Source: an uncultured Candidatus Saccharibacteria bacterium
GTDB lineage: Bacteria; Patescibacteriota; Minisyncoccia; Phycocordibacterales; CALRHW01
NCBI GenBank assembly: GCA_964407105.1
Contig: CAYOUG010000001.1
Location: forward strand, 96,227-160,226
Length of the DNA stretch: 64,000 bases
Reading direction: 5' to 3'
The translations under genes were made by a program, and so were the position numbers. Shown in pieces: positions 773-46,913 of this stretch; position 1 is the stretch's first letter, and the number at the start of each line of letters is the position of its first letter. A model generated the notes under the pieces. That model was not told the DNA's origin, did not search any database, and saw only the letters and a list, made by a program, of their open reading frames with translations.

Positions 773-776
773 TTTT

Positions 777-1346
777 ATGCTTTACACTCGAAAAGGAGAC
801 AGCGGGACAACAAAACTATTTGATTGTCCTCAAGGAACACGCGTAAGTAAATCCGCTTTTATTTTTGAGGCGTTAGGAACATTAGACGAACTAAATTCTT
901 CGCTCGGATATTCAAAGGTTCTATCAAAAAAATCAAAAAGTGTGATTGCGATGAAAACTCAGTATATTTCCTATGAAGAAATATTAGAGAGGTTTCAGAA
1001 TAATTTATTTTGTATTCAAGCAGAACTCGGAGGATCAAAAATGCATGCAACAAAAAATCACATTCTATATATTGAAAAAATTATCAAAAAAATAGAGGAA
1101 TTATTGCCTCCTATCAAATCATTTATTGTCCCGGGGGGTGGAGAAACTGGAGCTTATTTAGATATAGGAAGAACTATTGCTAGAAAAGCGGAACGTCAAG
1201 TGATATTGCTTCGCGAATCAAAAGAGCGAATTATTCATGACAATAGCATTATTTTTCTAAACCGACTTTCTAGTGCTTTATATGCACTGGCACGTTTTGC
1301 AAATTATCAAGAGGGGTATTCTGAAAAAAAACCCGAGTACAATTAA
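777..1346 (+). CDS. ATP:cob(I)alamin adenosyltransferase, PduO type
   Basis: The N-terminus 'MLYTRKGDSGTTKL' matches the PduO-type 'YTKTGDxGxTSL' signature. The gene is about 190 aa. The ATG at 777 sits inside the longer ORF from the track. Confidence 0.75.
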   Translation: MLYTRKGDSGTTKLFDCPQGTRVSKSAFIFEALGTLDELNSSLGYSKVLSKKSKSVIAMKTQYISYEEILERFQNNLFCIQAELGGSKMHATKNHILYIEKIIKKIEELLPPIKSFIVPGGGETGAYLDIGRTIARKAERQVILLRESKERIIHDNSIIFLNRLSSALYALARFANYQEGYSEKKPEYN

Positions 1347-1427
1347 ACTCTTTACTTTCATCAAATTTTGCCATATACATATATTGGAACAACCCTCAAC
1401 CCAAACCCCCAGCCAGGAGCACAAACT

Positions 1428-2141
1428 ATGTCTGAAAAACAAATCTTGATGCTAGACTTTGATAACGTCGTAACACTGGATCCAAAAACTGGAATTGGTT
1501 CGGAAGAAATCAAAAGAAATGCTTGGCTTGATGTTTTCAGTGATGTCAAACTAGACCCCCTAAAGCATGCGTTGGTAACGGCTCATGAAAGAATAAGGGG
1601 TGGAGGAGATCGTAAAGATATTGCGCGATTCATCCTGAAAGAGCTACGAATGTGCAACGAGAAATTAGAAGATGAGGTGACTTCTCGGTGTAAGACGTTT
1701 GAAGATCGTGCACAAGTAGGAATCAGAATGATGACGATTCCTAAAAACACCCGAAAAGCTCTTGCGCAACTTTCAAAACACACTCGACTTTACCTCAACA
1801 CAGCTACCCCAACAGAAGCGGTGAAGATATCTCTAAGGGCACTTGATCTTGAAAAGTATTTTCTTGGGGTGTTTGGAAGACCCGCTAGCAAAATTCACAA
1901 CATTCGATTGGTTGCCGAACGAGAGGGCTTAAATCCGGAATCCACAAAAATGATGCACGACAGGGTTGTTTTTGTGGACGACCAAGCAGCTGGATTAGAT
2001 ACAGCACACAAAATCGGCTGTAGATTTGTCGCAATGAGAACACGAAACAACAGTGACTGGTTGAAAAATGCTACATTTCCAGTAATCAATTCACTCGATG
2101 AGCTATGGCCACTGTTATCTTTTTTCCGGCCTGACCAATGA
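1428..2141 (+). CDS. HAD-superfamily hydrolase
   Basis: It has HAD motif I 'LMLDFDNVV' (DxDxV) and a late 'VVFVDD' motif. AGGAG lies 7 nt upstream of the ATG at 1428. Confidence 0.65.
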   Translation: MSEKQILMLDFDNVVTLDPKTGIGSEEIKRNAWLDVFSDVKLDPLKHALVTAHERIRGGGDRKDIARFILKELRMCNEKLEDEVTSRCKTFEDRAQVGIRMMTIPKNTRKALAQLSKHTRLYLNTATPTEAVKISLRALDLEKYFLGVFGRPASKIHNIRLVAEREGLNPESTKMMHDRVVFVDDQAAGLDTAHKIGCRFVAMRTRNNSDWLKNATFPVINSLDELWPLLSFFRPDQ

Positions 2142-2161
2142 AACATTCACGCAATCAAATG

Positions 2162-2198
2162 GCCGGATCGCACCAAGGCGATCCGGCTTTACTTTTTT
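2162..2198 (+). terminator. rho-independent terminator after the HAD gene
   Basis: GCCGGATCGC-ACCAAG-GCGATCCGGC is a perfect 10-bp stem, followed by a T-run. Confidence 0.7.
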
Positions 2199-2252
2199 AA
2201 ATACAATATCTCAGTAGAAGACCTTTTTTTTGTTTTAGATATACTATATACA

Positions 2253-4403
2253 ATGGATAAAAATTCAGCTTTAAAAGAAGAACTTCGTTTAAATGACTTT
2301 CAAAATAAAGCCCTAAAAAAGCTTGGAATTACCACCGTCGAAGATCTTTTATACTATTTCCCAGTTCGCTATGGTGATGTAGCTCAATCTCGAGAAATTT
2401 CAAGCTTAAAAAAAGATGATGTGGTGGCCATTTACGGAAAAGTAAGCGGTCTGAAAACCAAAAAAGCTTTCCATAAAAAAATAGCAATGTCAGAAGCAAC
2501 CATAGAAGACGAAACCGGTACCATTAAAGCCGTTTGGTTTCACCAACCATACATTGCAAAAATGATTCAAGATGGTGCGTTTGTAAAAGTAGAAGGAAAA
2601 GTGAGTGAGCGCAAAGAAGTGCTTTCTTTTATAAATCCAGAAATTGAAAGCATCTCAACACTTCCAACCGGAGTTGGTAATTCACTTTTTGGAAAGGAAG
2701 ATCATAGTTTTGCCTATCCTGTGTATGCTGAAAGTAAAGGTGTCACTTCACGTTGGTTTTATCATGCACTACAAAAAATTTTTAAATCGGGTGTACTTGA
2801 TACAATACAAGATCCTATTCCTACAAACATTTTGGAACACTACAATCTTCCCTCTTTAAAAACAGCTCTGATTTGGATTCATACACCAAAGAAAAAAGAA
2901 GACAGCGTTTCAGCGCGCAAACGTTTTGCTTTCGAAGAAATTTTTATCATTCAACTAGAAAAATTTAAAGAGAGAAAAGAATATGAAACATTGCAGTCTT
3001 TTGCGATAAAAGATGATAAGGGTGATGTTGATAAATTTATTAAACGTTTTCCTTTTAAAGCCACCGAGGCGCAAGAACAAGCGGTTGAACGTATCCTTGA
3101 GGATTTCAAAAAACCTCATCCAATGTCACGTCTTCTGGAGGGAGATGTTGGTTCAGGAAAAACAGCTGTTGCGGCAGCAACAGTCTTTGCTGTAACCACT
3201 ACCCCACCACAAAATCACGAATACGGAAATCTACAAACCGCATACATGGTTCCTACAGAAATTTTAGCTGAACAACATTTTGAATCTTTCATTCAATATT
3301 TTTCTTATCTCGGTATAAATATTGGCCTTATTACTTCAAGTGGGTGTAAAAAATTTCCTTCAAAAATAAATCCAACAAAAGCAACAGACATTTCTCGCAC
3401 TCAACTTTTAAAATGGGTTGCTGAAGGTACAATTCCGATTCTTGTAGGTACACACTCGCTTATTTCAAAAACCGTTAAGTTCAAAAATCTTGCGTATATC
3501 ATTATTGATGAACAACATCGTTTTGGTACAGCGCAACGTAAAGCATTGCGCAGAAAGGATAATGTTGTACCCCACCTACTTTCAATGACCGCAACGCCCA
3601 TCCCGCGCACGCTCGCCCTCACGGTGTATGGCGACCTTGATCTTACGCTCCTCGACCAGATGCCACACGGACGAAAACCAGTAATCACGGAAATCATCCT
3701 TCCACATAATCGCGATGCAGTGTATGAAAAAGTGCGAGCCGAAATTATCTCGGGCAGACAAGCTTATGTCATTTGCCCACGTATCTACGAGCCTGACCCC
3801 CAAAAAGAAACTGCTATCAACGCAAAATCAGTGACAGAAGAAGCACGCCGACTCAAAACGGTAGTATTCCCCGAGTACGAAATCGGCGTGCTTCACAGCA
3901 AAATGAAACCGACAGAAAAAGATAGAAGCATGCTTGATTTCAAAAATGGCAAAACACATATTCTTGTTGCTACATCAGTGATTGAGGTTGGAGTAAATGT
4001 GCCAAACGCGACCACTATTATTATCGAAGGTGCTGAACGTTTTGGTCTCGCCCAACTTCATCAACTTCGTGGACGCGTTATACGAAGCAATCATCAAGCA
4101 TACTGCTACGTTTTCGCTGACAGTAAAACAGAAAAAACTCTCGAACGACTAAGGGCACTCAAAACAGCAAAAAATGGTTTCGAGCTTGCCGAGTTTGATT
4201 TGGTCCAACGTGGCGCCGGTGAGCTTTACGGCAAAAAACAGTGGGGTATCTCCGACCTCGCCATGGAAGCAATAAAAAATATTAAAATGGTAGAAGCTGC
4301 ACGCCATGAAGCACAGCTTTTAATTGAAAAAGATAGAAATCTTTTGAATTATCCTATTCTTAAAAACAAAATTCTACAGTCAGAAAAAATTCACTTCGAA
4401 TAA
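2253..4403 (+). CDS. recG: ATP-dependent DNA helicase RecG
   Basis: It has an N-terminal wedge-like 'FPVRYGD', Walker A 'GDVGSGKTAVA', 'DEQHRFG', 'SMTATPIPRTLAL' and helicase C motifs 'QLRGRVIRS'. Confidence 0.9.
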   Translation: MDKNSALKEELRLNDFQNKALKKLGITTVEDLLYYFPVRYGDVAQSREISSLKKDDVVAIYGKVSGLKTKKAFHKKIAMSEATIEDETGTIKAVWFHQPYIAKMIQDGAFVKVEGKVSERKEVLSFINPEIESISTLPTGVGNSLFGKEDHSFAYPVYAESKGVTSRWFYHALQKIFKSGVLDTIQDPIPTNILEHYNLPSLKTALIWIHTPKKKEDSVSARKRFAFEEIFIIQLEKFKERKEYETLQSFAIKDDKGDVDKFIKRFPFKATEAQEQAVERILEDFKKPHPMSRLLEGDVGSGKTAVAAATVFAVTTTPPQNHEYGNLQTAYMVPTEILAEQHFESFIQYFSYLGINIGLITSSGCKKFPSKINPTKATDISRTQLLKWVAEGTIPILVGTHSLISKTVKFKNLAYIIIDEQHRFGTAQRKALRRKDNVVPHLLSMTATPIPRTLALTVYGDLDLTLLDQMPHGRKPVITEIILPHNRDAVYEKVRAEIISGRQAYVICPRIYEPDPQKETAINAKSVTEEARRLKTVVFPEYEIGVLHSKMKPTEKDRSMLDFKNGKTHILVATSVIEVGVNVPNATTIIIEGAERFGLAQLHQLRGRVIRSNHQAYCYVFADSKTEKTLERLRALKTAKNGFELAEFDLVQRGAGELYGKKQWGISDLAMEAIKNIKMVEAARHEAQLLIEKDRNLLNYPILKNKILQSEKIHFE

Positions 4404-4404
4404 T

Positions 4405-7101
4405 CTAGAATAAAGAGGAAACAAGGTTTACCACCCAACCAATACTATTAATTAGAGAATCAACAAAAGCTTGGAAACCACCACTTACTGCGGTCCATGC
4501 ATTCGCATACAAATGCGAGCTATCTGTTTGAGCATAAGCAACAATTGGATTTGGTGCGCTAGCATTCTGAATAATCCATAATCCTTGTTGAGAAACTGGG
4601 TTAGCAGGAGTATAAATTATTGCATTTTCGAAAGTAATAGTGTCACCTCCAGCAGAAAGAACCACTGAAGATGTGCCATCTGAACTTCCAGAATTTACTA
4701 TAATATTTGAAAGAGTTTGACCACCAGAAAGTTTTGGGGTAAATCGCCACACGTTGTGGTCGCCCACATTAGCACCGGTGTACATATAATCTGTATACCA
4801 ATCAGAAATATCATTATCTATCATTTCTACATTTTCATAACCAAGCATCAAATTTATTTCAGTAAGAACACTATTTAAAAGTGGTGCTCCATTTGATCCA
4901 TCTCCTGTCCAATAAATAAATTGATCGTTATTTGCAAGTGCGACATGCATAAGCATTTCTTGGTACAAATCAGAAGAAGCAACCTGACTTCCGGGGTACG
5001 CTTTATCAGTAACCCAAGTATGAAGATGTGCGCTGTTAGATAAGGCGGCAGATTTTGCCCAATTTGCATACAAACGGAAAGAATTGAAAGCATTCGGTGT
5101 ATAGTTTGGCAAACCAGCAGAATTCATTTGAGACGCTGATGCATTTAAATCTCCATAAGCAAACGGGCCTTGATGTGTACCTGGGTGTGCACCATTACCT
5201 GTTTTATATATATCCCAAGATCCACCATACGGAACGTTATAATTATCATTCCAATGAAGAAATCCGTACGAAGACATTTTTACATCTGGAAAATAATTTG
5301 TAGCAACATCAAAAATTGCTTCGTCCATATAACCAGCCATTCTATCAAATAGCCAATCATCATAAACACGAATATTCTCAAGAAAATCATTGAAATTTTG
5401 ACCTGTAGAGGTACAAACTTTTTGAACAAAATCATTTGGAAAAGGAAAATCTTCTGGTGGAAAACGTAGATCAGCCACTATTGCTTCACACCAACTTACT
5501 GGGCAATTTGCTCTATCGGCAACACACTTTGTTTGTATTCCAGCAAGATTCCATCCACCCTGTCCAGCAACTGGCTCATCATCATTAACAATAACATCAA
5601 TTTTTTTACCGGCATTTTTTATACCCAAAAAGAATGCCGTTAACCAATTTTGAGTAAAGTTTTTTCCTTCATCCCACCACAAACACGGCATTGGAGCATC
5701 AACAATACCAGCAGGAACTCCTGGGGAGGGTTGAACATGAGGAAGATTTGCGGCTGAAGTACCAGTAAGATCTAGATGCATTATTTGTGGCTCACCGGTA
5801 GTAGGATTCAAACACATATCTTTCCATGTATTTGTAGATAAGTCTTTGTAACTAAAGAGCCAATCTTCTACGTTTCTAAAACGTACAACTTTATGTCCTT
5901 CTGGTTGGTTTGCAATGAAATCGATGGTTTTAGTAATAGCACCATCAACCGGATTTGAAACATTTCCTCCACCAGCACCAACCCAATAGAAAGTAAACAC
6001 ATTCGTATATTGACCAGGAGGTATATCTGGCCACGAATACGCATAAATTTTTCTAGAAGCCACGTCCGTAGGTGGCCACGAAAGTGATCCTGTTATAGAT
6101 GATCCCACCTGTACGTCAGGACAATCTTTTTCATCTATATTGTTTATCGTCACTGACGCACTTTTAAGACCACTAGTTGAATATGTTTTAGTAACAGATG
6201 AAGCTGAACCCGAAAGTCCATCACTTCCATCCCATGAGTAAGTATATGGTGGTGTACCTCCACTTACTGTGGTGGAGTATGTTACAGAGCCGCCCACTGA
6301 TATTTGCGTAGCAGAAGCAGAACATGAAATATTGTAATTTAGAGCCGGGTTTTCATTTACCGTTACAGCACTTGAACATGGAATTGAAACACCGTTTATT
6401 TTTACTGTTGCATTTTTGTTGCCTTCTGAATTATATATCTTAGTAACAGATGAAGCTGAACCAGAAAGATTGTTGGTACCGCTCCATAAATATGTGTAAG
6501 AACCGATTCCACCACTTACACTTGCTGTCCATGTTACAGATTGGCCCTGAATAATTGTTGCAATAGACGGACTACATGATCCAGTAACACCACCTGGAAG
6601 TGGAACTGGAAGTGCTGGTGCCAATGGAAGCGCGGGGGTAGTTGGTCCACCACAAGAAAGAGATTGTATTTTTGCACGTGTTGCTGGACCGGCTACACCA
6701 AAACCATTGGTAGCTGGAGTACCTCCAGACACTAAACCTACACGTGCTTGAAATTTTTGTAATGCGCTTTGTGTGGCTGCACCAAAAAAACCGGTGATTG
6801 TAGGATATGTATAATCTCCCTGTGCTTTTAAAAACTTTTGTAATTTAGACACTTGTCCACCAGTCGATGCATCATTAAGACCTATATACAAATTTTGGGT
6901 CAGAACAAGACATGAGGCTTGTTGACTAAGTAGAGTAGAGAGTTGTTGTTGAAGTTGAGTAATAAGCACAAGTAAGGCTTGGATTTGAGCTTGTTCGGAG
7001 GCTGTTGTTGCAGAAGATGTGCGAGGAGAAAAAGAAATGGAGAAAATAAGTGTTCCCAAAAGCACCAAAATACACAGAAAAGAGATAACTATTTTTTTCA
7101 T
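4405..7101 (-). CDS. large secreted protein with a signal peptide, a peptidoglycan-binding-like domain, two PKD-like repeats and an uncharacterised W/Y/N-rich C-terminal domain of about 550 aa
   Basis: The N-terminal hydrophobic signal is 'MKKIVISFLCILVLL'. 'VSKLQKFLKAQGDYTYPTITGFFGAATQSALQKFQARVGL' fits PG_binding_1. The repeats are 'GGIGSYTYLWSGTNNLSGSASSVTK' and 'GGTPPYTYSWDGSDGLSGSASSVTKTYS'. Confidence 0.65.
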   Translation of the reverse strand: MKKIVISFLCILVLLGTLIFSISFSPRTSSATTASEQAQIQALLVLITQLQQQLSTLLSQQASCLVLTQNLYIGLNDASTGGQVSKLQKFLKAQGDYTYPTITGFFGAATQSALQKFQARVGLVSGGTPATNGFGVAGPATRAKIQSLSCGGPTTPALPLAPALPVPLPGGVTGSCSPSIATIIQGQSVTWTASVSGGIGSYTYLWSGTNNLSGSASSVTKIYNSEGNKNATVKINGVSIPCSSAVTVNENPALNYNISCSASATQISVGGSVTYSTTVSGGTPPYTYSWDGSDGLSGSASSVTKTYSTSGLKSASVTINNIDEKDCPDVQVGSSITGSLSWPPTDVASRKIYAYSWPDIPPGQYTNVFTFYWVGAGGGNVSNPVDGAITKTIDFIANQPEGHKVVRFRNVEDWLFSYKDLSTNTWKDMCLNPTTGEPQIMHLDLTGTSAANLPHVQPSPGVPAGIVDAPMPCLWWDEGKNFTQNWLTAFFLGIKNAGKKIDVIVNDDEPVAGQGGWNLAGIQTKCVADRANCPVSWCEAIVADLRFPPEDFPFPNDFVQKVCTSTGQNFNDFLENIRVYDDWLFDRMAGYMDEAIFDVATNYFPDVKMSSYGFLHWNDNYNVPYGGSWDIYKTGNGAHPGTHQGPFAYGDLNASASQMNSAGLPNYTPNAFNSFRLYANWAKSAALSNSAHLHTWVTDKAYPGSQVASSDLYQEMLMHVALANNDQFIYWTGDGSNGAPLLNSVLTEINLMLGYENVEMIDNDISDWYTDYMYTGANVGDHNVWRFTPKLSGGQTLSNIIVNSGSSDGTSSVVLSAGGDTITFENAIIYTPANPVSQQGLWIIQNASAPNPIVAYAQTDSSHLYANAWTAVSGGFQAFVDSLINSIGWVVNLVSSLF

Positions 7102-7198: not shown

Positions 7199-7271
7199 GC
7201 ACGTGTAGCTCAGTTGGTAGAGCGGTCGTCTTATACACGACTGGTCCCAGGTTCGAGTCCTGGCACGTGCA
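7199..7271 (+). tRNA. tRNA with anticodon UAU (isoleucine, AUA-decoding); CCA not encoded
   Basis: I folded it by hand. The acceptor GCACGTG/CACGTGC has 7 bp, the D-stem is GCTC/GAGC, and the anticodon stem is GTCGT/ACGAC with loop CTTATAC. The variable region is 5 nt. The T-stem is CCAGG/CCTGG with loop TTCGAGT, and the discriminator is A. Confidence 0.75.
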
Positions 7272-7401
7272 CAATGAGCAGGGCGAATTGTGCACGTGAG
7301 CAAGTGCCCAATGGCACTTGCGAACAGGACGAGAAAGGCTTTTCGTTATCGAGAGAGCGTACTCGCTTTCGAGATCGAAAAGTACCCGCGGCGGTAGCCG
7401 A

Positions 7402-10255: not shown

Positions 10256-10660
10256 GGGGATGATCGGCCTAGACAGGATATCAAATCATATATGTGCAAC
10301 GTAGAGCTTGAATACCTCTTAAAACTTTTCAAAATTCTAAGTGCAAACAACTTAGTTACAAAAGCAAAGTCAGTTGTCTCTCCATATTTTGGAGCAAAGG
10401 ATTTTACTTTCGCTTACGCAATAGCCTAAGCGACGTCACGTGAGCTGTTGTTCGATTGGCTCATTGTGGTGTTATATCATCGAAATAGAATGTGTGGTGT
10501 TTCGACACACATTTGAAATTAATTGAAAATAGGAGTGTGGCGGTTTTGTCTGTTTCATACGCCCCATTCCGAAATCGCCGTTAGGCGAAGAAACTTTCTA
10601 CACGTTGTAGACTCATATGTGATCATGTTCTGCACGGCGGTTCGATTCCGCCCATCTCCA
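10256..10660 (+). ncRNA. ssrA: tmRNA (ssrA); resume codon GCA at 10343; tag reading frame 10343..10429, encoding ANNLVTKAKSVVSPYFGAKDFTFAYAIA
   Basis: The 5' end is GGGGAUGAUCGGCCUAGACAGGAU. The 3' T-arm is GGCGG-UUCGAUU-CCGCC, and the acceptor 3' strand CAUCUCC plus A pairs with the 5' end, including the G3:U70 alanine identity pair. 'UAAGUGCAAACAAC' resembles the E. coli resume context, and the frame ends at UAA. The gene lies immediately downstream of smpB. Confidence 0.8.
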
Positions 10661-11264
10661 CTAGACACGAATTTTGAGCCTCTGGGAGGGTAAATACTCT
10701 TAGGGGTAGCGACAGAATAGCGGTTTCAAACCCGCTATTTTTGTTGTATGCCAACAGTTCCTGAAATACAAGCCTTAAAACCAGTCTTTTTTGGTGAATA
10801 TTACCTTTTTTCCATTTATCTAAAGGGTTCTTCAGAAAATCAAAAACAATATCTAATGCGGTTTCAATGTTTGGTTTGAGTGAATCAAAAGACACGATAG
10901 AACTTTTTAAAACCATTTCTTTTTCTGCGATCTCACTCAATCGTTTCTCATAAACAGTCACCACGTTATCATCCACAGCTCTTGTAAGCCTTCCTAGCAA
11001 TCGGTTACGCTCGATTTCGAGTTCCGCCAACTCATCAAAAATTTGTCTTTTCTTGGCGGCAATTCCTTTCTCTTTACTTTGCCAAACATCTTCAACAATT
11101 TTCTTTGTAAGACTTAATACCGTCTTGCTTGGTTTAATTCTCCATAAGATATCTAAAAACTTCTTTTCCATTACATCTCTATGAATACTTTTATTTCTCT
11201 GGCTACAGCCAGTTTGATTACATCGAAAGTAGGGCTTTTTATGCCTCAATAGCACTATAACCAA
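10623..11264 (-). pseudogene. large serine recombinase, C-terminal fragment only (zinc ribbon, coiled-coil and C-terminal subdomain); the catalytic resolvase domain is missing
   Basis: 'LLRHKKPYFRCNQTGCSQRNKSIHRDVMEKKFLDIL' resembles the LSR zinc-ribbon region. 'KRQIFDELAELEIERNRLLGRLTRA' is coiled-coil, and 'KRLVLRLVFQELLAY' resembles the LSR C-terminus. The frame has no upstream ATG or catalytic domain. Its last 13 codons overlap the tmRNA 3' end. Confidence 0.5.
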
Positions 11265-12703: not shown

Positions 12704-13417
12704 TCACCGACGACGTCTATATGTGAACATTCCAAGAACAAACAAACCGAGTGCTGATGGACCAGGAACTGTCGAACCGACTGAATCGATCCAGACTTCA
12801 CCTGACCCCATATTGAAATTTACAAAACCGATCGTATCAAAACCCGTAAACGATGGACCCCCATAGAAAGCGATCCAACTGGTCCAGGAGCCTTCATTCA
12901 ATCTGTATCGAGCCGATGCGTCTTGAGAACGCCACTCGATAGTGACGAGGTTCCAGATGTTGTCGGTATAGTCATCGAAACCAACATAAACATCCAGAAC
13001 AGGGTCAATGTAGGCGACCTGACCGCTTTTCATGAACGCCAAAGTCGCTCTCGACGGACCGTCCCACGAATCCTGAAAGAGACCGAGCTGAAAATTCTCG
13101 CCGATGCTGTAGTCTCCCCATTCAGAGTGGTTCACTGTCCGAACGTAAAACGACTGACTCCCATCTGCCAGTGAAACATCACCAGTCTTGGTAATGACAC
13201 TGTCGGCAAATTGATTGCTGCTTCCGATGGCTTCAGTCCCATCAATGCCGATGCCGTCCTGAACCAACCAGGTTTCACCATTGGCCCGATCGAACCAGTC
13301 TCCCTGCCCCACTACTGGTCCACTGACGTAGGAATTGAAATTATCCACGACAATGGAAGCTTGAGCATTCGTAGCCAAAAGAAAAAGCCACATAACGACA
13401 ATCACAATCATTTTCAT
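12704..13417 (-). CDS. secreted protein with a C-terminal PEP-CTERM-like sorting signal, in a GC-rich gene
   Basis: The signal peptide is 'MKMIVIVVMWLFLLATNAQA'. The extreme C-terminus 'VPGPSALGLFVLGMFTYRRRR*' has a Pro-rich motif, a hydrophobic helix and an Arg cluster. GC is visibly higher than in the flanks. Confidence 0.5.
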   Translation of the reverse strand: MKMIVIVVMWLFLLATNAQASIVVDNFNSYVSGPVVGQGDWFDRANGETWLVQDGIGIDGTEAIGSSNQFADSVITKTGDVSLADGSQSFYVRTVNHSEWGDYSIGENFQLGLFQDSWDGPSRATLAFMKSGQVAYIDPVLDVYVGFDDYTDNIWNLVTIEWRSQDASARYRLNEGSWTSWIAFYGGPSFTGFDTIGFVNFNMGSGEVWIDSVGSTVPGPSALGLFVLGMFTYRRRR

Positions 13418-17495: not shown

Positions 17496-17572
17496 AAATA
17501 TAAAAAAGCCGATCGCACAAACATGCGAACGGCTTTGGGTGATGCGGAGTGTTTTTTCAATTACACCGCACC

Positions 17573-18025
17573 CTAGATTTTGTGAGGTTCGCCGTGATTG
17601 CGGCAAGGACTATGTGGTGAATGACCACCACAGTCACAGGTATTTGATCGGCCGAGATTACGACAGGAACCGAGTTTCTCACAATCACAGGTATGTGGTC
17701 GACCAAGATGTGATCCGTCTTCATGTGTCGCACCACCATGCGCGTTGTTTGCCGATGGTTGGCGACATGACAAGTCATCGAACAACGGAGTCTCTTGGAT
17801 CTCTGTGGTTGCAGCGAGTAGAGTCCCCGCCGCTTTAAATAGAGCCCGATTCAATTCTTCTGAACTCCCTTCGGCGATCTGTCTGAGTTCTTCTGGGGTG
17901 GCCCGTCTTGACGCTAGCGCCACCAAAACCCGCCTAGCAATCAATAGTCCCCAAAACGCCATCTCGCAACTCTCAGCTCTTTGCTTTGGCATTTTGTTAA
18001 GCTCAACACTATCACTACCGCCCAT
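17573..18025 (-). CDS. Cys/His-rich hypothetical protein in a GC-rich island
   Basis: AGGAGG lies 6 nt upstream of the ATG at 18025. The C-terminus is 'HTCDCEKLGSCRNLGRSNTCDCGGHSPHSPCRNHGEPH'. The region is clearly GC-richer than its neighbours. Overlapping ORFs on the opposite strand look less gene-like. Confidence 0.4.
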   Translation of the reverse strand: MGGSDSVELNKMPKQRAESCEMAFWGLLIARRVLVALASRRATPEELRQIAEGSSEELNRALFKAAGTLLAATTEIQETPLFDDLSCRQPSANNAHGGATHEDGSHLGRPHTCDCEKLGSCRNLGRSNTCDCGGHSPHSPCRNHGEPHKI

Positions 18026-18190
18026 CAGACACCTCCTGCCCCTTTTAAGGGCAAAAAAGAAACTGAGGAACAAATTTCATCTATATGTATAACACAAAAA
18101 ACCCTTATTTGATATGTCTCAGACCACTTGCTCTATTTTCAAAACAATGCTATATTTTCTTGACGTTATTAGGTTATTTTTATACACATA

Positions 18191-18700
18191 TTGAGTACCA
18201 AGGTTAGAATAAATCATCAGATAAAAGCACCTGAGCTTCGGGTTATTGGTCCTGAAGGTGAAAATTTTGGGGTTATTTCCCTAGAAGAAGCCTTGAAAAG
18301 GGCCACAGAAGCTGGGTTTGATCTGATCGAAATATCACCAAACGCCGTTCCTCCGGTCGCAAAGATCATGGACTATGGCAAGTACCAATATGATGACAAC
18401 AAAAAAGCTAAGCTTGCAAAAGCAAAAGCTCATGTTGTGGAGGTAAAAAATATCCAAGTAAAAGTGGGTACAGGAGATCATGACTTGGCGCTAAAAGCAA
18501 AAAAGGCTTCAGAGTGGCTCGCCGAAGGAAACAGAGTAAAAATTGATCTATTTCTTCCAGGCAGAACAAAGTACATGGATCTAAATTTTCTTAAGGAGCG
18601 AATGGATAGAGTTCTTAAACTTATCACGATAGAATACAACATCGCCGATACGCCAAAGAAAAGCCCAAAAGGACTTACAACACTCATAGAAAGAAAATAA
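18191..18700 (+). CDS. infC: translation initiation factor IF-3
   Basis: The protein reads 'INHQIKAPELRVIGPEGE...' and has an IF3 C-terminal domain. The start is non-canonical, either TTG at 18191 or the in-frame ATA at 18188, as is typical of autoregulated infC. Confidence 0.9.
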   Translation: MSTKVRINHQIKAPELRVIGPEGENFGVISLEEALKRATEAGFDLIEISPNAVPPVAKIMDYGKYQYDDNKKAKLAKAKAHVVEVKNIQVKVGTGDHDLALKAKKASEWLAEGNRVKIDLFLPGRTKYMDLNFLKERMDRVLKLITIEYNIADTPKKSPKGLTTLIERK

Positions 18701-34615: not shown

Positions 34616-35812
34616 TTAAGCGATAATTTTTGTGATAACTCCCGCTCCCACCGTTTTACCTCCTTCTCGAATAGCAAATCTTTGTTTTTCTTCAAGAGCA
34701 ACTGGTGCTACAAGCTTTACTTTGAAAGTCACTGTGTCTCCTGGCATAACCATTTCAACACCCTCTTTTAGAGTCACATCTCCTGTAACGTCTGTTGTTC
34801 GGATATAGAATTGTGGTTTGTATCCTGAGAAGAAAGGAGTGTGTCGTCCACCTTCTTCTTTCTTTAGAATGTAAACTTCTGATTCAAACTCTGTGTGAGG
34901 TGTTACTGATCCTGGTTTTGCAAGAACCTGTCCTCGAGAAATATCTTCTTTTTTAAGACCTCGAACAAGAATTCCGGCATTGTCTCCAGCCATACCCTCA
35001 GAAAGTGATTTGTTGAACATTTCGATACCAGTCACAACAGTCTTTGCAATAGGTTTTAGACCAACAACTTCTACCTCTTCACCCACTTTTATAACACCGC
35101 GTTCGATACGTCCGGTTACCACTGTTCCACGACCTTCGATTGAGAAAATGTCCTCAACTGGCATAAGAAATGCCTTTTCAAGATCACGAGCTGGAATTGG
35201 AATGTATGTATCAAGAACGTTTGCGAGTTCAAGAATCTTTTGTGCCCATTCATCACTATTATCTTTTGCTTCAAGTGCTTTTAGACCAGAACCACGAATC
35301 ACAGGAGCGTTTGCGCCATCATATTCATTTTTTGTAAGGAGTTCACGCACTTCTTCTTCCACAAGGTCAATGAGTTCTTTATCAGGAACCATGTCACACT
35401 TGTTTAGAAAAACAACAACCTTTGGTACTCCAATCTGTCGAGCCAAAAGAATATGTTCGCGAGTTTGTGGCATAACACCGTCTGTAGCAGCCACCACAAG
35501 AATAGCACCGTCCATTTGAGCGGCACCGGTGATCATGTTTTTAATATAGTCGGCATGGCCCGGAGCGTCGATGTGAGCGTAATGACGAGTTGGTGTTTCG
35601 TATTCGTTGTGAGAAAGCGCAATGGTAATACCACGAGCTTTTTCTTCAGGGGCTTTATCAATACCGTCGATACCCACAACCTTTGCACTAAAACCTGTGC
35701 CTTGTCGTGATAGAACCGCAAGAATAGCTGCTGTTAATGTGGTCTTTCCATGATCAACGTGGCCGATAGTTCCTACGTTTACATGGGGTTTTGATCGATC
35801 AAAATCTGTCAT
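34616..35812 (-). CDS. tuf: elongation factor Tu
   Basis: It has '[23 protein letters not shown]', 'DAPGHADY' and 'NKCD'. Confidence 0.97.
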
Positions 35813-36004
35813 GTTTTTAATGTTAGCCCGACACACAGTGTGGTCGAGGGGTTATAAATAAATTACTGCTTTATTTCGTTTTGTATGATGTTTTTTGAAG
35901 ACAACAAAACAAAAACGGCGCAAAAAGCGATAGTGCTCATATTAGCAAACGATGTGCAATAGTCAAGCAGACACGGCTTGAACAACAATTATCATTTGTT
36001 GGAC

Positions 36005-36034
36005 TTGACATGGTCACTAAAAATATGCTATTGT
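36005..36034 (+). promoter_or_regulatory. sigma70-type promoter (TTGACA, 18 nt, TGcTATTGT extended -10) for the 36080 gene
   Basis: I read it directly. AAGGAG lies 7 nt before the ATG at 36080. Confidence 0.5.
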
Positions 36035-36079
36035 GTGAGCGAGGTTACTGTCTTTTCGCCACCTTAAAGGAGACCTATA

Positions 36080-36334
36080 ATGGCTGAAACAAAAGACTAC
36101 GGTATTCAAATGCCCACTTCACGCGGCGGTTTCATGTTCTTTTTTTACGTGTTCTTTGCGGTAATGGGGCTCATCTCGTGGAATTTTGGCTTAACAGGAG
36201 CTCATGTGTTTTTGTTTGTTGTTTCGCTTGTTCTTTTGATTATATTATCAATGAGTGACTGTCCATTGTCTTTAATAGGTTGTGTGGGAGTGGTGGCTAT
36301 TACGTTACTAGTCCTACTACGATTAACTCTTTGA
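36080..36334 (+). CDS. small membrane protein (3 TM helices), hypothetical
   Basis: It has a strong promoter and SD, and hydrophobic helices. It is inserted between tuf and fusA. Confidence 0.55.
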   Translation: MAETKDYGIQMPTSRGGFMFFFYVFFAVMGLISWNFGLTGAHVFLFVVSLVLLIILSMSDCPLSLIGCVGVVAITLLVLLRLTL

Positions 36335-36518
36335 GGTGAAATAGGGTGTCACGTAAAGTCTAAGTCTTTTTCTTCACAATCGAAGCGATCAATTCTGGTC
36401 GCTTTTTCTTTTGACAATTTACAAAAATCTCTAAAAAAGAATACCAATATTGGGTTTTAGATTTAAAAAAGAAAGCCCCGACGAGAATTGTTGGGGCAGT
36501 GAAAACAAGTGGAGCTGG

Positions 36519-37091
36519 TCACTTGGATGTGTCAGCTTGGTCCAGTGAGCGGTCCAACTCTTCTCGCGCGGCCTTCTGCGAAGCTTGGAGCCAATCCGTC
36601 CAAGATGTCCACTGCGAAGATGGGAGCGGTGGCTTGAGAACAAGCAGTTTGTCGCCCCCTAGTCGCTTCGCGGTGGAACCGGTCAACACCATCACCACAT
36701 AACGCACCGGGTGATGATTCAGCTCTTCAAGCATGCTCCCCGTATTGCGCGGAGACATTTTACACCTGGTCATATGACTCCACGGCTTCCAGAAAACTGG
36801 CGGTCGAACCATCTCAAGATCAGAATTAAGCCACACATCACTCTTCCCCACCAGCAGTACTCCAAGTACAGCGTGATGACCCAGCTCGTGGAAACCCGCA
36901 GGGCGCACATACATATCCGACAAGGTTGCCGGTCGCACCTTGATTGAGCGGATCTTGTTGGGATAGAAAGCAAGCCATGGTAGCCTTGCCCTATATCCCT
37001 CCAGACCAGTCCCAGAAAGAGGTTCGAGTTCGTATATCTCATTGAACATTTTCTCGATTTCTGGTGAAAAAAAATACTCTGGGTAAATCAT
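36519..37091 (-). CDS. HExxH zinc metallopeptidase-like protein (possibly ImmA/IrrE-M78-like), in a GC-rich gene
   Basis: The motif is 'YVRPAGFHELGHHAVLGVLL'. AAGGAG lies 8 nt upstream of the ATG at 37091. A TTGACA-containing promoter lies upstream. GC is markedly higher than in the flanking str-operon spacer. Confidence 0.5.
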   Translation of the reverse strand: MIYPEYFFSPEIEKMFNEIYELEPLSGTGLEGYRARLPWLAFYPNKIRSIKVRPATLSDMYVRPAGFHELGHHAVLGVLLVGKSDVWLNSDLEMVRPPVFWKPWSHMTRCKMSPRNTGSMLEELNHHPVRYVVMVLTGSTAKRLGGDKLLVLKPPLPSSQWTSWTDWLQASQKAAREELDRSLDQADTSK

Positions 37092-37291
37092 TCCAAATCT
37101 CCTTCGTGGCACAGCCACTTTGTAGAAGCGCACAGCACTTCATAAGTAAAGAACGGGTAAAGCACGGCTTTACCGCCAAAAACATAATATAACAAAAGTA
37201 TATTTTGTCAAATAGAATTACCGCCGGTATCACGAGGTTTCTTTATAACTTCTTTAGGGAAACTTTAGGAAATATATGATTCTATTTAGGG

Positions 37292-37825
37292 ATGAAAAAC
37301 AATAATACACAAGATTCAATTGAAGTTGTTTTAAGTGAAAATGTACAAAATAAAATTTATATGATTAGAAATGAAAAGGTTATGCTCGATTTTGATTTGG
37401 CTGCACTTTACAAGATAAAAACCCAAGCTCTTAATCAAGCCGTTAAAAGAAACCTGAAAAGATTTCCTTCTGATTTTATGTTTCCCCTAAGTAAAGACGA
37501 GGAGAAAATTTTGATATCACAAATTGTGATATCAAAATCAGGCGGTAGACGAAAACCTGTCTTCGCCTTTACCGAGCAAGGCATAGCAATGCTCTCAAGC
37601 GTTCTAAAAAGCGACCGCGCTATTGCGGTAAACATTCAAATAATAAGAACATTCACCCAGCTAAGGCGCATGCTTTCAACCCACAAAGAACTCCGAGAGA
37701 AAATTGAGGAGCTTGAGAAAAAGTATGATGGAAAATTTGAAATCCTCTTTAAAACGATTCGGCAAATTTTAACAGAACAAGAAGAACCTAGAGAAAAAAT
37801 TGGGTTTAAAAATCAAAATCTATAA
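37292..37825 (+). CDS. ORF6N-domain (KilA-N-related, phage-associated) DNA-binding protein
   Basis: 'IRNEKVMLDFDLAALYKIKTQALNQAVKRNLKRFPSDFMF' and 'GGRRKPVFAFTEQGIAMLSSVLKSDRAIAVNIQIIRTF' match the ORF6N signature. Confidence 0.65.
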   Translation: MKNNNTQDSIEVVLSENVQNKIYMIRNEKVMLDFDLAALYKIKTQALNQAVKRNLKRFPSDFMFPLSKDEEKILISQIVISKSGGRRKPVFAFTEQGIAMLSSVLKSDRAIAVNIQIIRTFTQLRRMLSTHKELREKIEELEKKYDGKFEILFKTIRQILTEQEEPREKIGFKNQNL

Positions 37826-37857
37826 ACAAAAAACCGCCAGAGGCGGTTTTTTGTTTT

Positions 37858-40002
37858 CTACTTTCGACTCTCCACAATCGTCTTCTCCACGTTTGGAGGC
37901 ACAATATCGTAGTGATCAAATTCCATTCCAGCGTTTCCGCGACCTTCGGTCATTGAGCGGAGTTGTGTGGTAAATCCAAACATTTCAGAAAGAGGCACCA
38001 TCGCTCGAATTACTTTTATGCCTCCTGGGCGATCTTCAAAACCTTCTATTGTTGCGCGTTTTGATGAAAGACTTCCTGTAATGTCTCCGAAGAATTTTTC
38101 AGGGACGGTCACTTCAAGTTTCATAATTGGCTCAAGAATAACTGGTCGAGCTTTCTTTGCAGCTTCTTGAAACGCTTGAGACGCAGCAATTTTATAAGCA
38201 ATTTCAGATGAATCCACGTCGTGATAAGAACCGAAAGTGAGCTCACAAGATACGTTTACCATTTTGTATCCAGCCACAATTCCACGATCCATTGCTTCTT
38301 TTACTCCTTTTTCTACTGCAGGAATAAACTCCTGAGGAATAACCCCTCCCTTAATTGAATCCACGAATTCAAATCCGTCGTATCGTTTTACGTTTTTAGG
38401 AATTTTTGCTCCCTCTTCGATTTTTTCAAGTGGTTTGATATTCAATTTTACGTGACCGTACTGACCCTTTCCTCCAGATTGCTTGATGTATTTGTGTTCT
38501 GCTTCTGCGGTTCCTGTGATTGTTTCTTTATAAGACACTTGAGGTTGGCCAACGTTTGCTTCCACGGTAAATTCTCGCTTCATTCGGTCTACCATAATTT
38601 CAAGGTGAAGCTCTCCCATTCCTGAAATAATTGTTTCGCCAGTATCTGAGTTTGAACTAATTTTAAATGTTGGATCTTCGTCAGAAAGTTTTTTGAGAGC
38701 CATTCCCATTTTTTCACTGTCTGCTTTTGTTTTTGGTTCGATACGCAAAGACACAACGGGTTCAACGAATTTAATTGGATCAAGAATAATCGGCTGATTT
38801 TCATCACAAAGAGTATGGGATGTTCTGGCACTTTTTAAACCCACCGCCGCCGCGATTTCTCCAGCAAAAACTTTTTTTACTTCTTCACGTTTGTCGGCCT
38901 GAAGTCGCACAATACGACCGAGTCGCTCTTTTTCGCCAGTTGTGGAGTTATAAATATAGGTTCCAGCTTCGATTGTTCCTGAATACACGCGGAAAAACGT
39001 AAGCTGCCCAACAAATGGATCGTTTTGGAGCTTGAAAGCAAGCGCCGCAAAAGGTTCATCATCTGACGCGTGTCGTGTAATGGTGTCTCCTGTTTTTGGA
39101 TCAAGACCGGTTACTGGAGGAATATCAAGTGGAGACGGAAGATACTCTACAACACCATCAAGTACAAGCTGAACACCTTTATTTTTCAACGCAGAACCAG
39201 CAAACACTGGAATAAGTTTTACCGCGAGTGTGGCTTTTCTAAGTGTTGCTTTTAATGCAGACATTTCAGGCTCTTTACCATCAAGATACATAGACATGAG
39301 CTCATCATCTTGTTCAACAATTTTTTCAATAAGTGTCGCTCGATGTTTTTTTGCTTCTTCTAAATATTCTGCAGGAATTTCTGCTTCTCGAATTTCAATA
39401 CCCATCGTTCCTTCAAAATAATATGCTTTCATTTTGAGTAAATCGATAACGCCTTCAAAATGTTCTTCAAGACCAATAGGAATTTGGAGACGTACAGCGT
39501 TTGGATTTAGTCTGTCGACAATAGATTTAAATGATCGTTCAAAACTCGCACCCATACGATCGAGTTTGTTGATAAAACATACTCGAGGCACTTTTCCATC
39601 ATCAGCATATCGCCAATTTGTTTCAGATTGAGGTTCTACTCCAGCCACGCCGTCGAAAACCACCACCGCACCGTCGAGTACTCGTAGAGAGCGCTTTACT
39701 TCAGCAGTAAAATCAATGTGTCCGGGAGTATCAATAATATTAAAACGAAACATTGCGCTTTTTTCTTTTGGCGCATATGTAGGATTCCAAAAACAAGTAA
39801 TGGCCGCAGCGGTAATGGTGATACCACGTTCTCGTTCCTGCTCCATCCAGTCAGTGGTAGTATTTCCTTCATGCACTTCACCTATCTTGTGACTCATTCC
39901 TGTGTAATACAAAACGCGCTCTGATGTGGTTGTTTTCCCAGCATCAATATGCGCAATAATTCCAAAATTTCTTGTTTTTTCTAATGGGTAGTCGCGGTTC
40001 AT
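37858..40002 (-). CDS. fusA: elongation factor G
   Basis: It has 'RNFGIIAHIDAGKTTTSERVLYYTG' and 'DTPGHIDF', and is 714 aa. Confidence 0.97.
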   Translation of the reverse strand: MNRDYPLEKTRNFGIIAHIDAGKTTTSERVLYYTGMSHKIGEVHEGNTTTDWMEQERERGITITAAAITCFWNPTYAPKEKSAMFRFNIIDTPGHIDFTAEVKRSLRVLDGAVVVFDGVAGVEPQSETNWRYADDGKVPRVCFINKLDRMGASFERSFKSIVDRLNPNAVRLQIPIGLEEHFEGVIDLLKMKAYYFEGTMGIEIREAEIPAEYLEEAKKHRATLIEKIVEQDDELMSMYLDGKEPEMSALKATLRKATLAVKLIPVFAGSALKNKGVQLVLDGVVEYLPSPLDIPPVTGLDPKTGDTITRHASDDEPFAALAFKLQNDPFVGQLTFFRVYSGTIEAGTYIYNSTTGEKERLGRIVRLQADKREEVKKVFAGEIAAAVGLKSARTSHTLCDENQPIILDPIKFVEPVVSLRIEPKTKADSEKMGMALKKLSDEDPTFKISSNSDTGETIISGMGELHLEIMVDRMKREFTVEANVGQPQVSYKETITGTAEAEHKYIKQSGGKGQYGHVKLNIKPLEKIEEGAKIPKNVKRYDGFEFVDSIKGGVIPQEFIPAVEKGVKEAMDRGIVAGYKMVNVSCELTFGSYHDVDSSEIAYKIAASQAFQEAAKKARPVILEPIMKLEVTVPEKFFGDITGSLSSKRATIEGFEDRPGGIKVIRAMVPLSEMFGFTTQLRSMTEGRGNAGMEFDHYDIVPPNVEKTIVESRK

Positions 40003-40062
40003 AATTGTTTAATTAATAATTTTTAGTATTGAAATTCGTCAGAAATTATTGAGTAAGTGTGT

Positions 40063-40185
40063 CCGAAAATTATTTCAGCGTAGCTTTTGAGGGGGGGTCT
40101 CGAGCGCGACGGCGCGAGAGCTTCAGGATTTTTTAAGCTTCAAAAAATCCGTACCCCACAAAAGCTATGATGAAATAATTTTCGG
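40063..40185. repeat. 123-bp element with roughly 27-bp imperfect terminal inverted repeats enclosing GC-rich nested hairpins (MITE-like or structured intercistronic RNA)
   Basis: The left arm is CCGAAAATTATTTCAGCGTAGCTTTTG. The right arm's reverse complement is CCGAAAATTATTTCATCATAGCTTTTG, matching at 24 of 27 positions. The interior has GGATTTTTT-aagcttc-AAAAAATCC and GC-rich GAGCGCGACGGCGCGAGAG. Confidence 0.5.
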
Positions 40186-42172: not shown

Positions 42173-42784
42173 TCAGGTGCTCTGTTGAGAGAAAGAGGTT
42201 TCATCAACAGCCACGAAAAGTTGATACCGACCAAACCGCCAGAATGGATCATGGAAAGTGCCGGAGTTTACACTCCAACCACCAAACCATCCCGGACGCC
42301 AAAACACAAAAACCGGGCAAAGCACACCTGCGTGGTTTAACACAGGAAAGATGTTCAGATCACCATTTGTTCTGAGAACACCCGCCTTACCCTTTCTTTG
42401 CGCTTTCATCAAAAAGTAGACCTGAGCAAGGCCGGTGCGGTGGTTTTCTCCCAAAACAACGGGTTCGTTGGTCTCAGGAAGTGGTTTGGACACAAAGCAA
42501 ACGAGAATACTCGCCTGACTTGGTTCTTCTACCACCCCTCCAAAGTTTGCAACAAAACGCTTGCCTCGGTCTACAATTTTGACTCCCGTGAAGAGATTCC
42601 GCCCCCGCACGAAATTGCGCCTAACAACAAACTCTTCTTTGATTCTCGGTACCACAACCGGAGACAGATCTCTTAGGGTAATTGGTTCCGAATTCAAAGA
42701 TGCTGTTTTTGGCACAGTCTGATTATCAGACACTGAACGCAGGAATTCGCGCCACGAGCGCAGATCTCCAATACTCATACTCAT
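42173..42784 (-). CDS. hypothetical protein in a GC-rich island
   Basis: AAAGGAGGTG lies upstream of 'MSMSIGD'. The start was placed by ORF-track arithmetic, with an uncertainty of about 3 nt. I recognised no domain. GC is higher than in the neighbours. Confidence 0.4.
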   Translation of the reverse strand: MSMSIGDLRSWREFLRSVSDNQTVPKTASLNSEPITLRDLSPVVVPRIKEEFVVRRNFVRGRNLFTGVKIVDRGKRFVANFGGVVEEPSQASILVCFVSKPLPETNEPVVLGENHRTGLAQVYFLMKAQRKGKAGVLRTNGDLNIFPVLNHAGVLCPVFVFWRPGWFGGWSVNSGTFHDPFWRFGRYQLFVAVDETSFSQQST

Positions 42785-42887
42785 TTTCCACCTCCTTTCT
42801 TTTTGTGGATGAATTTTAGTATGTTCTAATATAGGAGTATACACGATAAAGAATCATTTAAAATGGGTAGGTGTGAATATGAAATAA

Positions 42888-46247: not shown

Positions 46248-46913
46248 ATGACCAAACTTGAACGCCTGTTCTTTGATGGTAGGGTGTCACCACTACTCTT
46301 GAGATTGTGGTGCCCAATAGATGGTCACAAAATGGTGAAGATGTGGTACAAGAACAGAAATGAGGGGGCGTTCTTCTCAATCATCTTCTTGTTTTGTACG
46401 GCTTTCTTTGTTTTCAAGTACATTACAACTTCTACTATTTTTTGGCACAACGGTGATTTTGGCACCTCCAGCATCAGCCTGCTCGAATTGGGGTTGATCT
46501 GTATCCCTTACGCCATGTTTGGTTTTTCTGGACTTTTCGTGTTCAAAATGCTTTTACGCAACCTCCACTACAAAACAGATCCATTCGAAGACGTAAGCAA
46601 ATTCCCTGATACTAAATTCTTTGACGCCTGCGACAGGCTAGCAGAGATTTTAGAAATTAGCACCGCAGGATACGCGAGCAAGGAGTGGATCAGACAAGCA
46701 GTAGACACACATCTCGTAAGAATCGGTCGACATGTGGTCGATGAAGAAAAGAGTGGAGTAAGAGACTCTGAAACATTAGAAGAAAACCGAAAAAAAATGA
46801 GAGAAGATCACAGCTTTCTGGTAGATAATTTTCCAGCGGTTGTGGACGGAACCTTCAATAGATATTACCAAATAGCAGAAGAAAAATGGGCTGAGGAAAA
46901 CAGCCCAACTTAA
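46248..46913 (+). CDS. membrane protein (2 TM helices), hypothetical, in a moderately GC-richer gene
   Basis: AAGGAA lies upstream of the ATG. A terminator lies at 46946-46982. Confidence 0.45.
   Translation: MTKLERLFFDGRVSPLLLRLWCPIDGHKMVKMWYKNRNEGAFFSIIFLFCTAFFVFKYITTSTIFWHNGDFGTSSISLLELGLICIPYAMFGFSGLFVFKMLLRNLHYKTDPFEDVSKFPDTKFFDACDRLAEILEISTAGYASKEWIRQAVDTHLVRIGRHVVDEEKSGVRDSETLEENRKKMREDHSFLVDNFPAVVDGTFNRYYQIAEEKWAEENSPT

Follow-up and report, generated by a model that had tools for sequence, protein, structure and literature searches.

A probable accessory-gene slot between fusA and tuf in a Paceibacteria-type genome, with a resident ORF6N/PDC-S05 gene and a later pair of orphan genes

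In the ImmR/ImmA module of ICEBs1 and in the DdrO/IrrE module, a metallopeptidase of the M78 family is coupled to a repressor that is cleaved by it. A module of this kind was proposed, on the basis of the sequence alone, for a stretch of 64,000 nucleotides (nt) from an uncultured Candidatus Saccharibacteria bacterium (contig CAYOUG010000001.1; the whole stretch is called the window below), in which the genes for the elongation factors EF-G (fusA) and EF-Tu (tuf) lie apart. This original prediction described the interval as about 2 kb of foreign-looking DNA that splits the str operon, and considered such an arrangement unusual. We indeed found a fusA-tuf gap of 2,045 nt (35813-37857), which holds three well-formed small genes, each with promoter signals of its own as far as can be predicted: a gene for an ORF6N-domain protein, a GC-rich gene of 190 codons (orf190; the supposed peptidase) and a gene of 84 codons for a putative membrane protein (tm84). 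In a classical str operon tuf directly follows fusA, and neither a terminator nor a promoter intervenes; here the two are set apart by the gap and by predicted signals of both types. Our analysis indicates that the interval is probably a slot for accessory genes that separates two apparent transcription units; an ORF6N/PDC-S05 gene is resident in it, and a strain-variable pair of orphan genes was added later. For any specific function of the genes in the gap our confidence is much lower.

Three kinds of described systems come close to such a slot. In Proteobacteria, where fusA and tufA share a transcript, multigene insertions separate the operons of the translation machinery (Brandis, Cao and Hughes 2019, PMC6735719). 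The window resembles these insertions in that accessory genes lie between conserved translation operons in a lineage-specific pattern, but the break falls within the classical str operon, at the fusA-tuf junction, and it appears to be the common state among the Patescibacteria relatives sampled. The stand-alone ORF6N/PDC-S05 genes, of which there are thousands of homologs (many in Patescibacteria), share with the copy in the window a match over the full length of the profile, a size of around 175 amino acids (aa) and a conserved C-terminal helical region. The copy in the window differs in that it lies antisense between fusA and tuf, outside any recognisable defence island or prophage. A representative of PDC-S05, described with a RhuM domain, was shown to cut the plating of phages T7 and T5 on E. 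coli around 1,000-fold and that of T4 around 10-fold (10.1101/2024.09.26.614923; PMC12881386). Finally, strain-variable hotspot cassettes and the orf190 region have in common that a highly divergent coding sequence is set in conserved surroundings (flanks, promoter and leader), in strains that are 97-99% identical elsewhere; unlike such cassettes, orf190 is a single orphan with two alleles, has no match to a defence or immunity domain, and is accompanied by no recombinase or cassette-exchange machinery that we could find.

The composite nature of the gap becomes apparent from a comparison with the nearest other species among the matches listed (contigs L086-L091), which was found through exact-protein look-up. 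The EF-Tu and EF-G of L086 are 88.7% and 89.4% identical to those of the window, and the order within the gap of this species is tuf, antisense ORF6N gene, fusA, thus with the ORF6N gene at the same site and in the same orientation as in the window. The gap of L086 measures only 825 nt, and tm84 and orf190 are absent. L086 aligns with the window through position 35970 and resumes at 37240, with only around 25 nt between these points. On the one side, the block 35721-35970, which covers the beginning of tuf together with the sequence upstream of it, including a promoter-like site, is 73% identical, and the ten residues at the tuf start align with MADFDRSK of L086. On the other side, the block directly upstream of the ORF6N gene (37240-37285, +) shows 80% identity to L086 4916-4961 and marks the right-hand edge of the lineage-specific insert; beyond it the ORF6N gene is conserved, and a GC-rich hairpin occupies the same position as the predicted terminator between ORF6N and fusA. 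Considering that the segment 35971-37239, which carries the convergent genes tm84 and orf190, is missing from L086 between conserved flanks, it represents a later, lineage-specific addition of 1.27 kb. The gap thus comprises two layers or more, the ORF6N gene being the older and the tm84/orf190 pair the younger. Only these 1.27 kb are specific to the lineage, and sharing of gap genes with a relative, which would have marked the arrangement as ancestral, was found for the ORF6N gene and not for the other two.

The same comparison bears on the ORF6N gene itself (37292-37825, +; 177 aa), the family assignment of which was confirmed in full. It matched Pfam PF10543 with an E-value of 4.4e-32 (110.6 bits at a cutoff of 27.8; model positions 1-86 of 86, residues 20-104), PHROG 4792, annotated 'anti-repressor', with 3e-25, and the PADLOC profile PDLC04856 of PDC-S05 with 1.7e-55 over residues 6-176 of the 177; two more PDC-S05 profiles matched with 1e-52 and 7e-37. 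On these profile matches the gene is a full-length member of the stand-alone ORF6N/PDC-S05 family, of which at least 7,992 homologs were recovered at E<=1e-10, many of them from Patescibacteria, the closest around 70% identical among the matches listed. Its product probably acts as a KilA-N-type DNA-binding protein, most likely in defence against phage or in the sensing or control of phage. The GC content at third codon positions (GC3) is 0.30 and therewith host-like, as the ribosomal-protein and translation-factor genes that were measured range from 0.24 to 0.30. In alignment A3 the homolog closest to the copy in the window (P0014; 78%) stems from the L086 group. Given the shared site and orientation in the L086 species, the ORF6N gene at this site appears to be older than the species of the window. 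Of 80 metagenomic ORF6N loci at a greater distance (among the matches listed), not one adjoined fusA or tuf. The family as a whole can be considered mobile, since its homologs occur in unrelated contexts; the copy in the window still looks inherited within a small clade, where it would have become stably lodged antisense in the classical str operon.

Within the ORF6N gene we observed a perfect palindrome of 15+15 nt (37508-37538, +; ATTTTGATATCACAA-T-TTGTGATATCAAAAT), which encodes part of the LISQIVIS motif that is conserved in the family and is far longer than predicted by chance. It could serve as a binding site or form a hairpin, or it could simply result from the repetitive peptide that is encoded. 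Further homologs of the ORF6N gene, around 69% identical, were present in L092 (5001-6011), L093 (533-1543) and L174 (34-1108), in unrelated contexts and each followed by a co-directional gene of around 155 codons. The products of the latter are identical in L092 and L093, show 40% identity to that of L174 and have two predicted membrane helices, and the combination may represent a conserved two-gene module. This partner is absent from the window, and tm84 is unrelated to it.

The separation of fusA and tuf fits the phylogenetic background. The genome of the window is of a Patescibacteria lineage of the Paceibacteria type: among the matches listed, the identity of its EF-Tu to that of metagenome-assembled genomes (MAGs) labelled Zambryskiibacteria, Kaiserbacteria, Yonathbacteria, Adlerbacteria and "Saccharibacteria" does not exceed 84%, and its EF-G is 74-82% identical to that of Paceibacteria-type MAGs. 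We compared, again among the matches listed, the 25 retrieved genomes with an EF-Tu identity of at least 70% (relatives) with 23 other bacteria retrieved. The fusA-tuf gap had a median of 961 nt in the relatives (range 113-6,254), as compared to 81 nt in the other bacteria, and three of the four large-gap outliers in the latter set were again Patescibacteria. With a gap of 400 nt or more in 22 out of 25 relatives, a split str operon is not unusual here. It seems the usual state in the phylum, the gap being mostly occupied by unrelated genes, so that the adjacency of fusA and tuf is not a safe assumption in Patescibacteria and the supposed rarity of the arrangement disappears. The gap contents differed from genome to genome without relationship and included response regulators, a histidine kinase, a FIST protein, an alanine racemase, orphans of more than 1,000 aa, secreted orphans and small Phd/YefM-like, DUF805 and DUF5663-like proteins. 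The gap sequence of the window itself matched none of 80 GTDB relatives retrieved.

Some of the gaps showed recurring elements. Six of the more distant relatives (L022, L023, L027, L028, L037 and L039) carried an open reading frame (ORF) of 83-124 aa on the operon strand, several of which were mutually homologous and one of which had a weak match to the Phd/YefM antitoxins (E=0.003), and L001-L003 shared a DUF5663-like gene of 95 aa just upstream of tuf. GC-rich islands of around 600 nt, 10-15 percentage points above the GC content of the locus, were seen in L017 (7400-8000) and L036 (9100-9700), with ORFs of around 200 codons (in L036 on both strands). These were considered as relatives of orf190 and rejected, as they showed no similarity to it and no Pfam match.

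The predicted signals around the gap suggest why it may have become occupied. The fusA gene (40002-37858, -; 714-aa ORF) is the last of an rpsL-rpsG-fusA unit (rpsL, 41094-40684, -; rpsG, 40668-40198, -; both of the translation-gene cluster), and tuf (35812-34616, -) opens a unit that continues, according to the ORF list, with rpsJ, rplC, rplD, rplW and rplB on the minus strand. A predicted bidirectional intrinsic terminator at 37824-37856, with a perfect stem of 15 bp and T-runs on both strands, would serve fusA (-) and the ORF6N gene (+). Ahead of tuf the promoter scan identified a promoter-like site (TTGACT-16-TAATAT with TG; 35966-35939, -), the hexamers of which are conserved in L086. Considering that both the predicted terminator after fusA and the predicted promoter before tuf are also found in L086, fusA and tuf look like separate transcription units, and the gap between them would therefore be permissive for gene gain. 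We propose that the ORF6N gene settled antisense in the gap before the species of the window arose, and that the 1.27-kb segment with the independently promoted tm84 and orf190 was added later, between the promoters of tuf and the ORF6N gene. In this scenario orf190, and perhaps tm84, would be conflict-type accessory genes, kept variable by recombination at a conserved leader, and the slot possibly collects phage-defence-related genes.

Both genes of the younger segment have the predicted signals of an autonomous unit. The tm84 gene (36080-36334, +; 84 aa) runs antisense to the operon and is preceded by an AGGAG Shine-Dalgarno sequence and a predicted promoter (TTGACA-18-TATTGT with TG; 36005-36034, +) that agrees with the consensus at 10 of 12 positions; a predicted terminator (36382-36405, +) consists of a 10-bp stem and a T-run. 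The hydropathy profile has three hydrophobic segments, in keeping with the earlier description of a strongly promoted protein with three transmembrane segments. The gene lacked a family match in Pfam, NCBIfam, PHROG and PADLOC as well as a relative in IMG/VR, and was recovered solely from a Logan contig (L082) that is identical to the window. This contig was assembled from another sequencing run and is 100% identical over 35561-40122, so that an assembly artefact can be dismissed for the locus.

The orf190 gene (37091-36519, -) lies on the strand of fusA and tuf, and is opposite only to tm84 and the ORF6N gene, so that its earlier placement on the other strand was mistaken. It is transcribed divergently from the ORF6N gene, out of a region of 158 nt. 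The description as a GC-rich gene with its own promoter, Shine-Dalgarno sequence and structured 5' untranslated region (UTR) was borne out at the level of prediction: the promoter (TTGACA-16-TATTAT; 37211-37184, -) agrees with the consensus at 11 of 12 positions, the Shine-Dalgarno sequence AAGGAG (37104-37099, -) is found 7 nt before the ATG at 37091, and the 85-nt leader (37092-37177, -) has three predicted hairpins, with a minimum free energy of -29.6 kcal/mol (z=-2.3; 6 out of 200 shuffles were equally stable). Behind the gene a terminator-like hairpin with a T-run (36497-36464, -) could be read by eye from the sequence as GCCCCAAC...GTCGGGGC followed by TTTCTTTTTT; it is missing from the output of the terminator scan, a single mismatch within its stem being the probable reason. 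The GC content is 52%, and 0.57, 0.43 and 0.56 at codon positions 1, 2 and 3, to be compared with a GC3 of 0.24-0.30 in the core genes and an intermediate 0.39 in tm84. The label 'foreign-looking' therefore suits orf190 and not the gap as a whole, with its host-like ORF6N gene. Other orphan genes of the window have a GC3 of 0.42-0.51, and because several of them share the raised value it marks a class of genes in this genome and not a unique island.

Homologs of orf190 are exceedingly scarce. Searches against Pfam, NCBIfam, PHROG and PADLOC at E<=1 yielded nothing except one irrelevant weak PHROG match, and no PDB sequence matched at E<=10. A word-seeded search of 5.8 billion proteins retrieved only orf190 itself, and an exhaustive HMMER search of 1.84 billion representatives added to the self match only P0002, which was dismissed as a chance hit: it is a repeat protein of 530 aa whose score is the sum of five repeats and which has FEDLNH in place of the HExxH. 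Relatives were absent from IMG/VR and, by tblastn, from the GenBank phages, the conserved leader DNA was not found in IMG/VR either, and a profile built from the two known alleles gave no further homologs. A single-sequence AlphaFold2 model was too poor for a fold search, with a mean predicted local distance difference test score of 47 and values below 50 for residues 42-118.

The second allele comes from a sister strain (L081/L083; run DRR783867), and is the most informative sequence in this analysis. Run DRR783855 also represents the sister strain, whereas SRR12487045 contains the allele of the window itself. After the start region it aligns with orf190 in frame and without gaps, 45 of 91 aa being identical (~49%), and the proportion of differing nonsynonymous sites (pN, 0.33) is well below that of the synonymous sites (pS, 0.73, saturated), which corresponds to a dN/dS of around 0.15. 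Considering the in-frame allele, the excess of pS over pN, the distribution of GC over the codon positions and the presence of a Shine-Dalgarno sequence and ATG in both alleles, orf190 appears to be a genuine protein-coding gene. Between conserved flanks (VRPAG...VLGV) the sister allele has YTAPGLH opposite the FHELGHH of the window. As the only homolog found thus lacks the HExxH, the string does not appear to be a conserved catalytic motif, nor orf190 a conserved HExxH peptidase.

Outside orf190 the two strains are closely related, with a background identity of 97-99% over 8.5 kb, on which three tracts stand out. Identity rises to 99-100% in the tract around the ORF6N gene (~37095-37990; dS 0.02), drops to 80-87% over most of fusA (dS ~1.1), and falls to around 55-69% at the DNA level in the coding sequence of orf190. 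The sister strain has a single base change in the orf190 promoter, located in the spacer, and an almost fully conserved 5' UTR apart from a 5-nt insertion, with similarity stopping directly after the Shine-Dalgarno sequence. The pattern is that of a recombination mosaic, and the divergence of orf190 behind a conserved leader would fit allele replacement of a conflict gene, for instance in a conflict with phage. With alleles at around 49% protein identity in strains that are elsewhere 97-99% identical at the DNA level, orf190 qualifies as a candidate conflict gene, and this in organisms about whose defences against phage little is known. The sister strains also carry an extra gene of 224 codons between rpsG and fusA (L081 3406-4080, -, equal to L083 8541-9215; also in L085), with a hydrophobic N-terminus and without a Pfam or PADLOC match, which is absent from the window. 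As the adjoining fusA is 80-87% identical against a background of 97-99%, an imported recombination tract is suggested. Exact-protein look-ups with EF-Tu (398 and 406 aa) and L3 returned no record, and that with L23 no contig reaching the gap.

The reading of orf190 and the ORF6N gene as a recently inserted mobile-element control module, with an M78 peptidase of the ImmA/IrrE type next to an ORF6N/KilA-N regulator, drew on real features. As in ImmR/ImmA and DdrO/IrrE, a small cytoplasmic protein with an HExxH string adjoins a DNA-binding gene; the FHELGHH would arise by chance in only around 1% of shuffles of the orf190 composition, the two genes are divergent, the GC content of orf190 is atypical, and relatives of the ORF6N protein are annotated as phage anti-repressors. 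Nevertheless, the M78 assignment had to be abandoned, as no M78 or other peptidase profile matched at E<=1, the HExxH is replaced by YTAPGLH in the only homolog, and the gap contains no match to a helix-turn-helix (HTH) family, the ORF6N gene being the sole DNA-binding neighbour in place of the XRE/cI-type HTH repressor of the known modules. A mobile-element backbone is lacking as well: no integrase-like or transposase domain occurs in any of the three genes, there is no tRNA within the gap, and the flanking repeats are short, AT-rich and of low identity, none of them convincing. A CACGGCTT repeat at 35972 and 37163 was considered as the edges of the insert and ascribed to chance, given its shortness and the location of the second copy inside the conserved leader. 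In addition, the ORF6N gene is host-like in composition and occupies the same site in another species, and relatives of orf190 and tm84 are absent from IMG/VR, as are those of orf190 from the GenBank phages. The control-module model is therefore largely refuted, and we consider it barely credible; an HExxH string and a neighbouring DNA-binding gene are insufficient for calling an ImmA-like module. Equally hard to credit is that 36440-37180 is a structured non-coding RNA in which the 190-codon frame is incidental. The segment has 54% GC in a genome of 39%, a predicted promoter and terminator of its own, no protein homologs in the large searches, and a folding stability that exceeds that of shuffled sequences (z around -4, 20 shuffles). 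This excess was equal on both strands, however, and thus fits an effect of composition and not a strand-specific RNA, and Rfam searches (of the whole window at the gathering thresholds and of the gap at E<=10) returned within the gap only terminator look-alikes. Both alleles have a Shine-Dalgarno sequence and ATG and align without gaps after the start region, pS far exceeds pN, and codon position 2 has the lowest GC content, as would be expected of coding DNA, on which evidence the RNA reading was rejected.

A single recent acquisition of the whole 2-kb gap from one foreign donor would account for the absence of its sequence from the 80 GTDB relatives retrieved and for the foreign-like GC3 of orf190, but is highly improbable. 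The GC3 differs among the ORF6N gene, tm84 and orf190 (0.30, 0.39 and 0.56), the ORF6N gene and its flanks are common to L086 and the other two genes are not, and as the orf190 alleles are synonymously saturated while their flanks are near-identical, the parts of the gap must have had different histories. More can be said for the idea that the three genes form one new multi-gene phage-defence or abortive-infection system, composed of a DNA-binding sensor/regulator, a hypervariable specificity factor or effector and a small membrane effector. The ORF6N gene belongs to PDC-S05, orf190 shows the extreme divergence of conflict genes behind a conserved promoter and leader, the two diverge from the same 158-nt region, and genes for homologous membrane proteins of around 155 aa stand behind close ORF6N homologs in two other genomes. 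We still regard such a system as unlikely: the ORF6N gene occurs alone at the site in L086, tm84 is unrelated to the 155-aa partner, the three genes have separate predicted promoters and terminators, and orf190 and tm84 had no homologs elsewhere, in the searches made, that would show co-occurrence. PDC-S05 is moreover a single-gene candidate, which we take to be the meaning of its 'S' code. The widest extrapolation, in which the fusA-tuf junction of the Paceibacteria type would be a lineage-wide slot for conflict genes, occupied in this species by a new defence-type module of the ORF6N/PDC-S05 gene plus a hypervariable orf190 cassette that is swapped at the conserved promoter and leader and with tm84 as membrane partner, is quite doubtful.

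The accessory-gene slot that we favor has to be weighed against several points of its own. The promoters and terminators that delimit the two apparent transcription units are consensus predictions only, and relatives closer than L086 may exist beyond the matches listed. Equally similar ORF6N homologs (P0011, P0006 and P0022) are found in unrelated contexts, so the shared position of the gene could reflect two independent insertions. Of orf190 two alleles are known, and one of these ends at 91 aa by reaching the end of its contig. With respect to defence, the link of the ORF6N gene would be one of family membership, the phage-tested PDC-S05 protein may belong to another subfamily, and the neighbours of the ORF6N gene in the window (fusA, tuf, orf190 and tm84) had no match to a PADLOC defence model and do not constitute a defence island.

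Elsewhere in the window, genes with a raised GC3 (0.43-0.51) were found at 12704-13417 (-), 42173-42844 (-) and 46248-46913 (+). A Pfam scan of the first two gave no match. The product of 12704-13417 (237 aa) resembles a signal peptide at its start and a PEP-CTERM sequence at its end (PGPSALGLFVLGMFTYRRRR), and the 42173 gene is more divergent between the strains (86-91% identity). A GC-rich patch of around 500 nt (17551-18090; 51% GC) upstream of infC (18191-18700) has long open frames on both strands without a clear codon-position pattern, no Pfam match and no Rfam match at E<=0.1; it could represent an RNA that has escaped recognition or a further orphan gene. The window encodes a single tRNA, a tRNA-Ile (7199-7272, +) whose anticodon is TAT (UAU); this is uncommon, as most bacteria read AUA with a TilS-modified tRNA-Ile(CAU). 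Finally, the window contains a transfer-messenger RNA gene (10256-10663, +; Rfam 117.6 bits), the predicted tag of which (ANNLVTKAKSVVSPYFGAKDFTFAYAIA) is unusually long.

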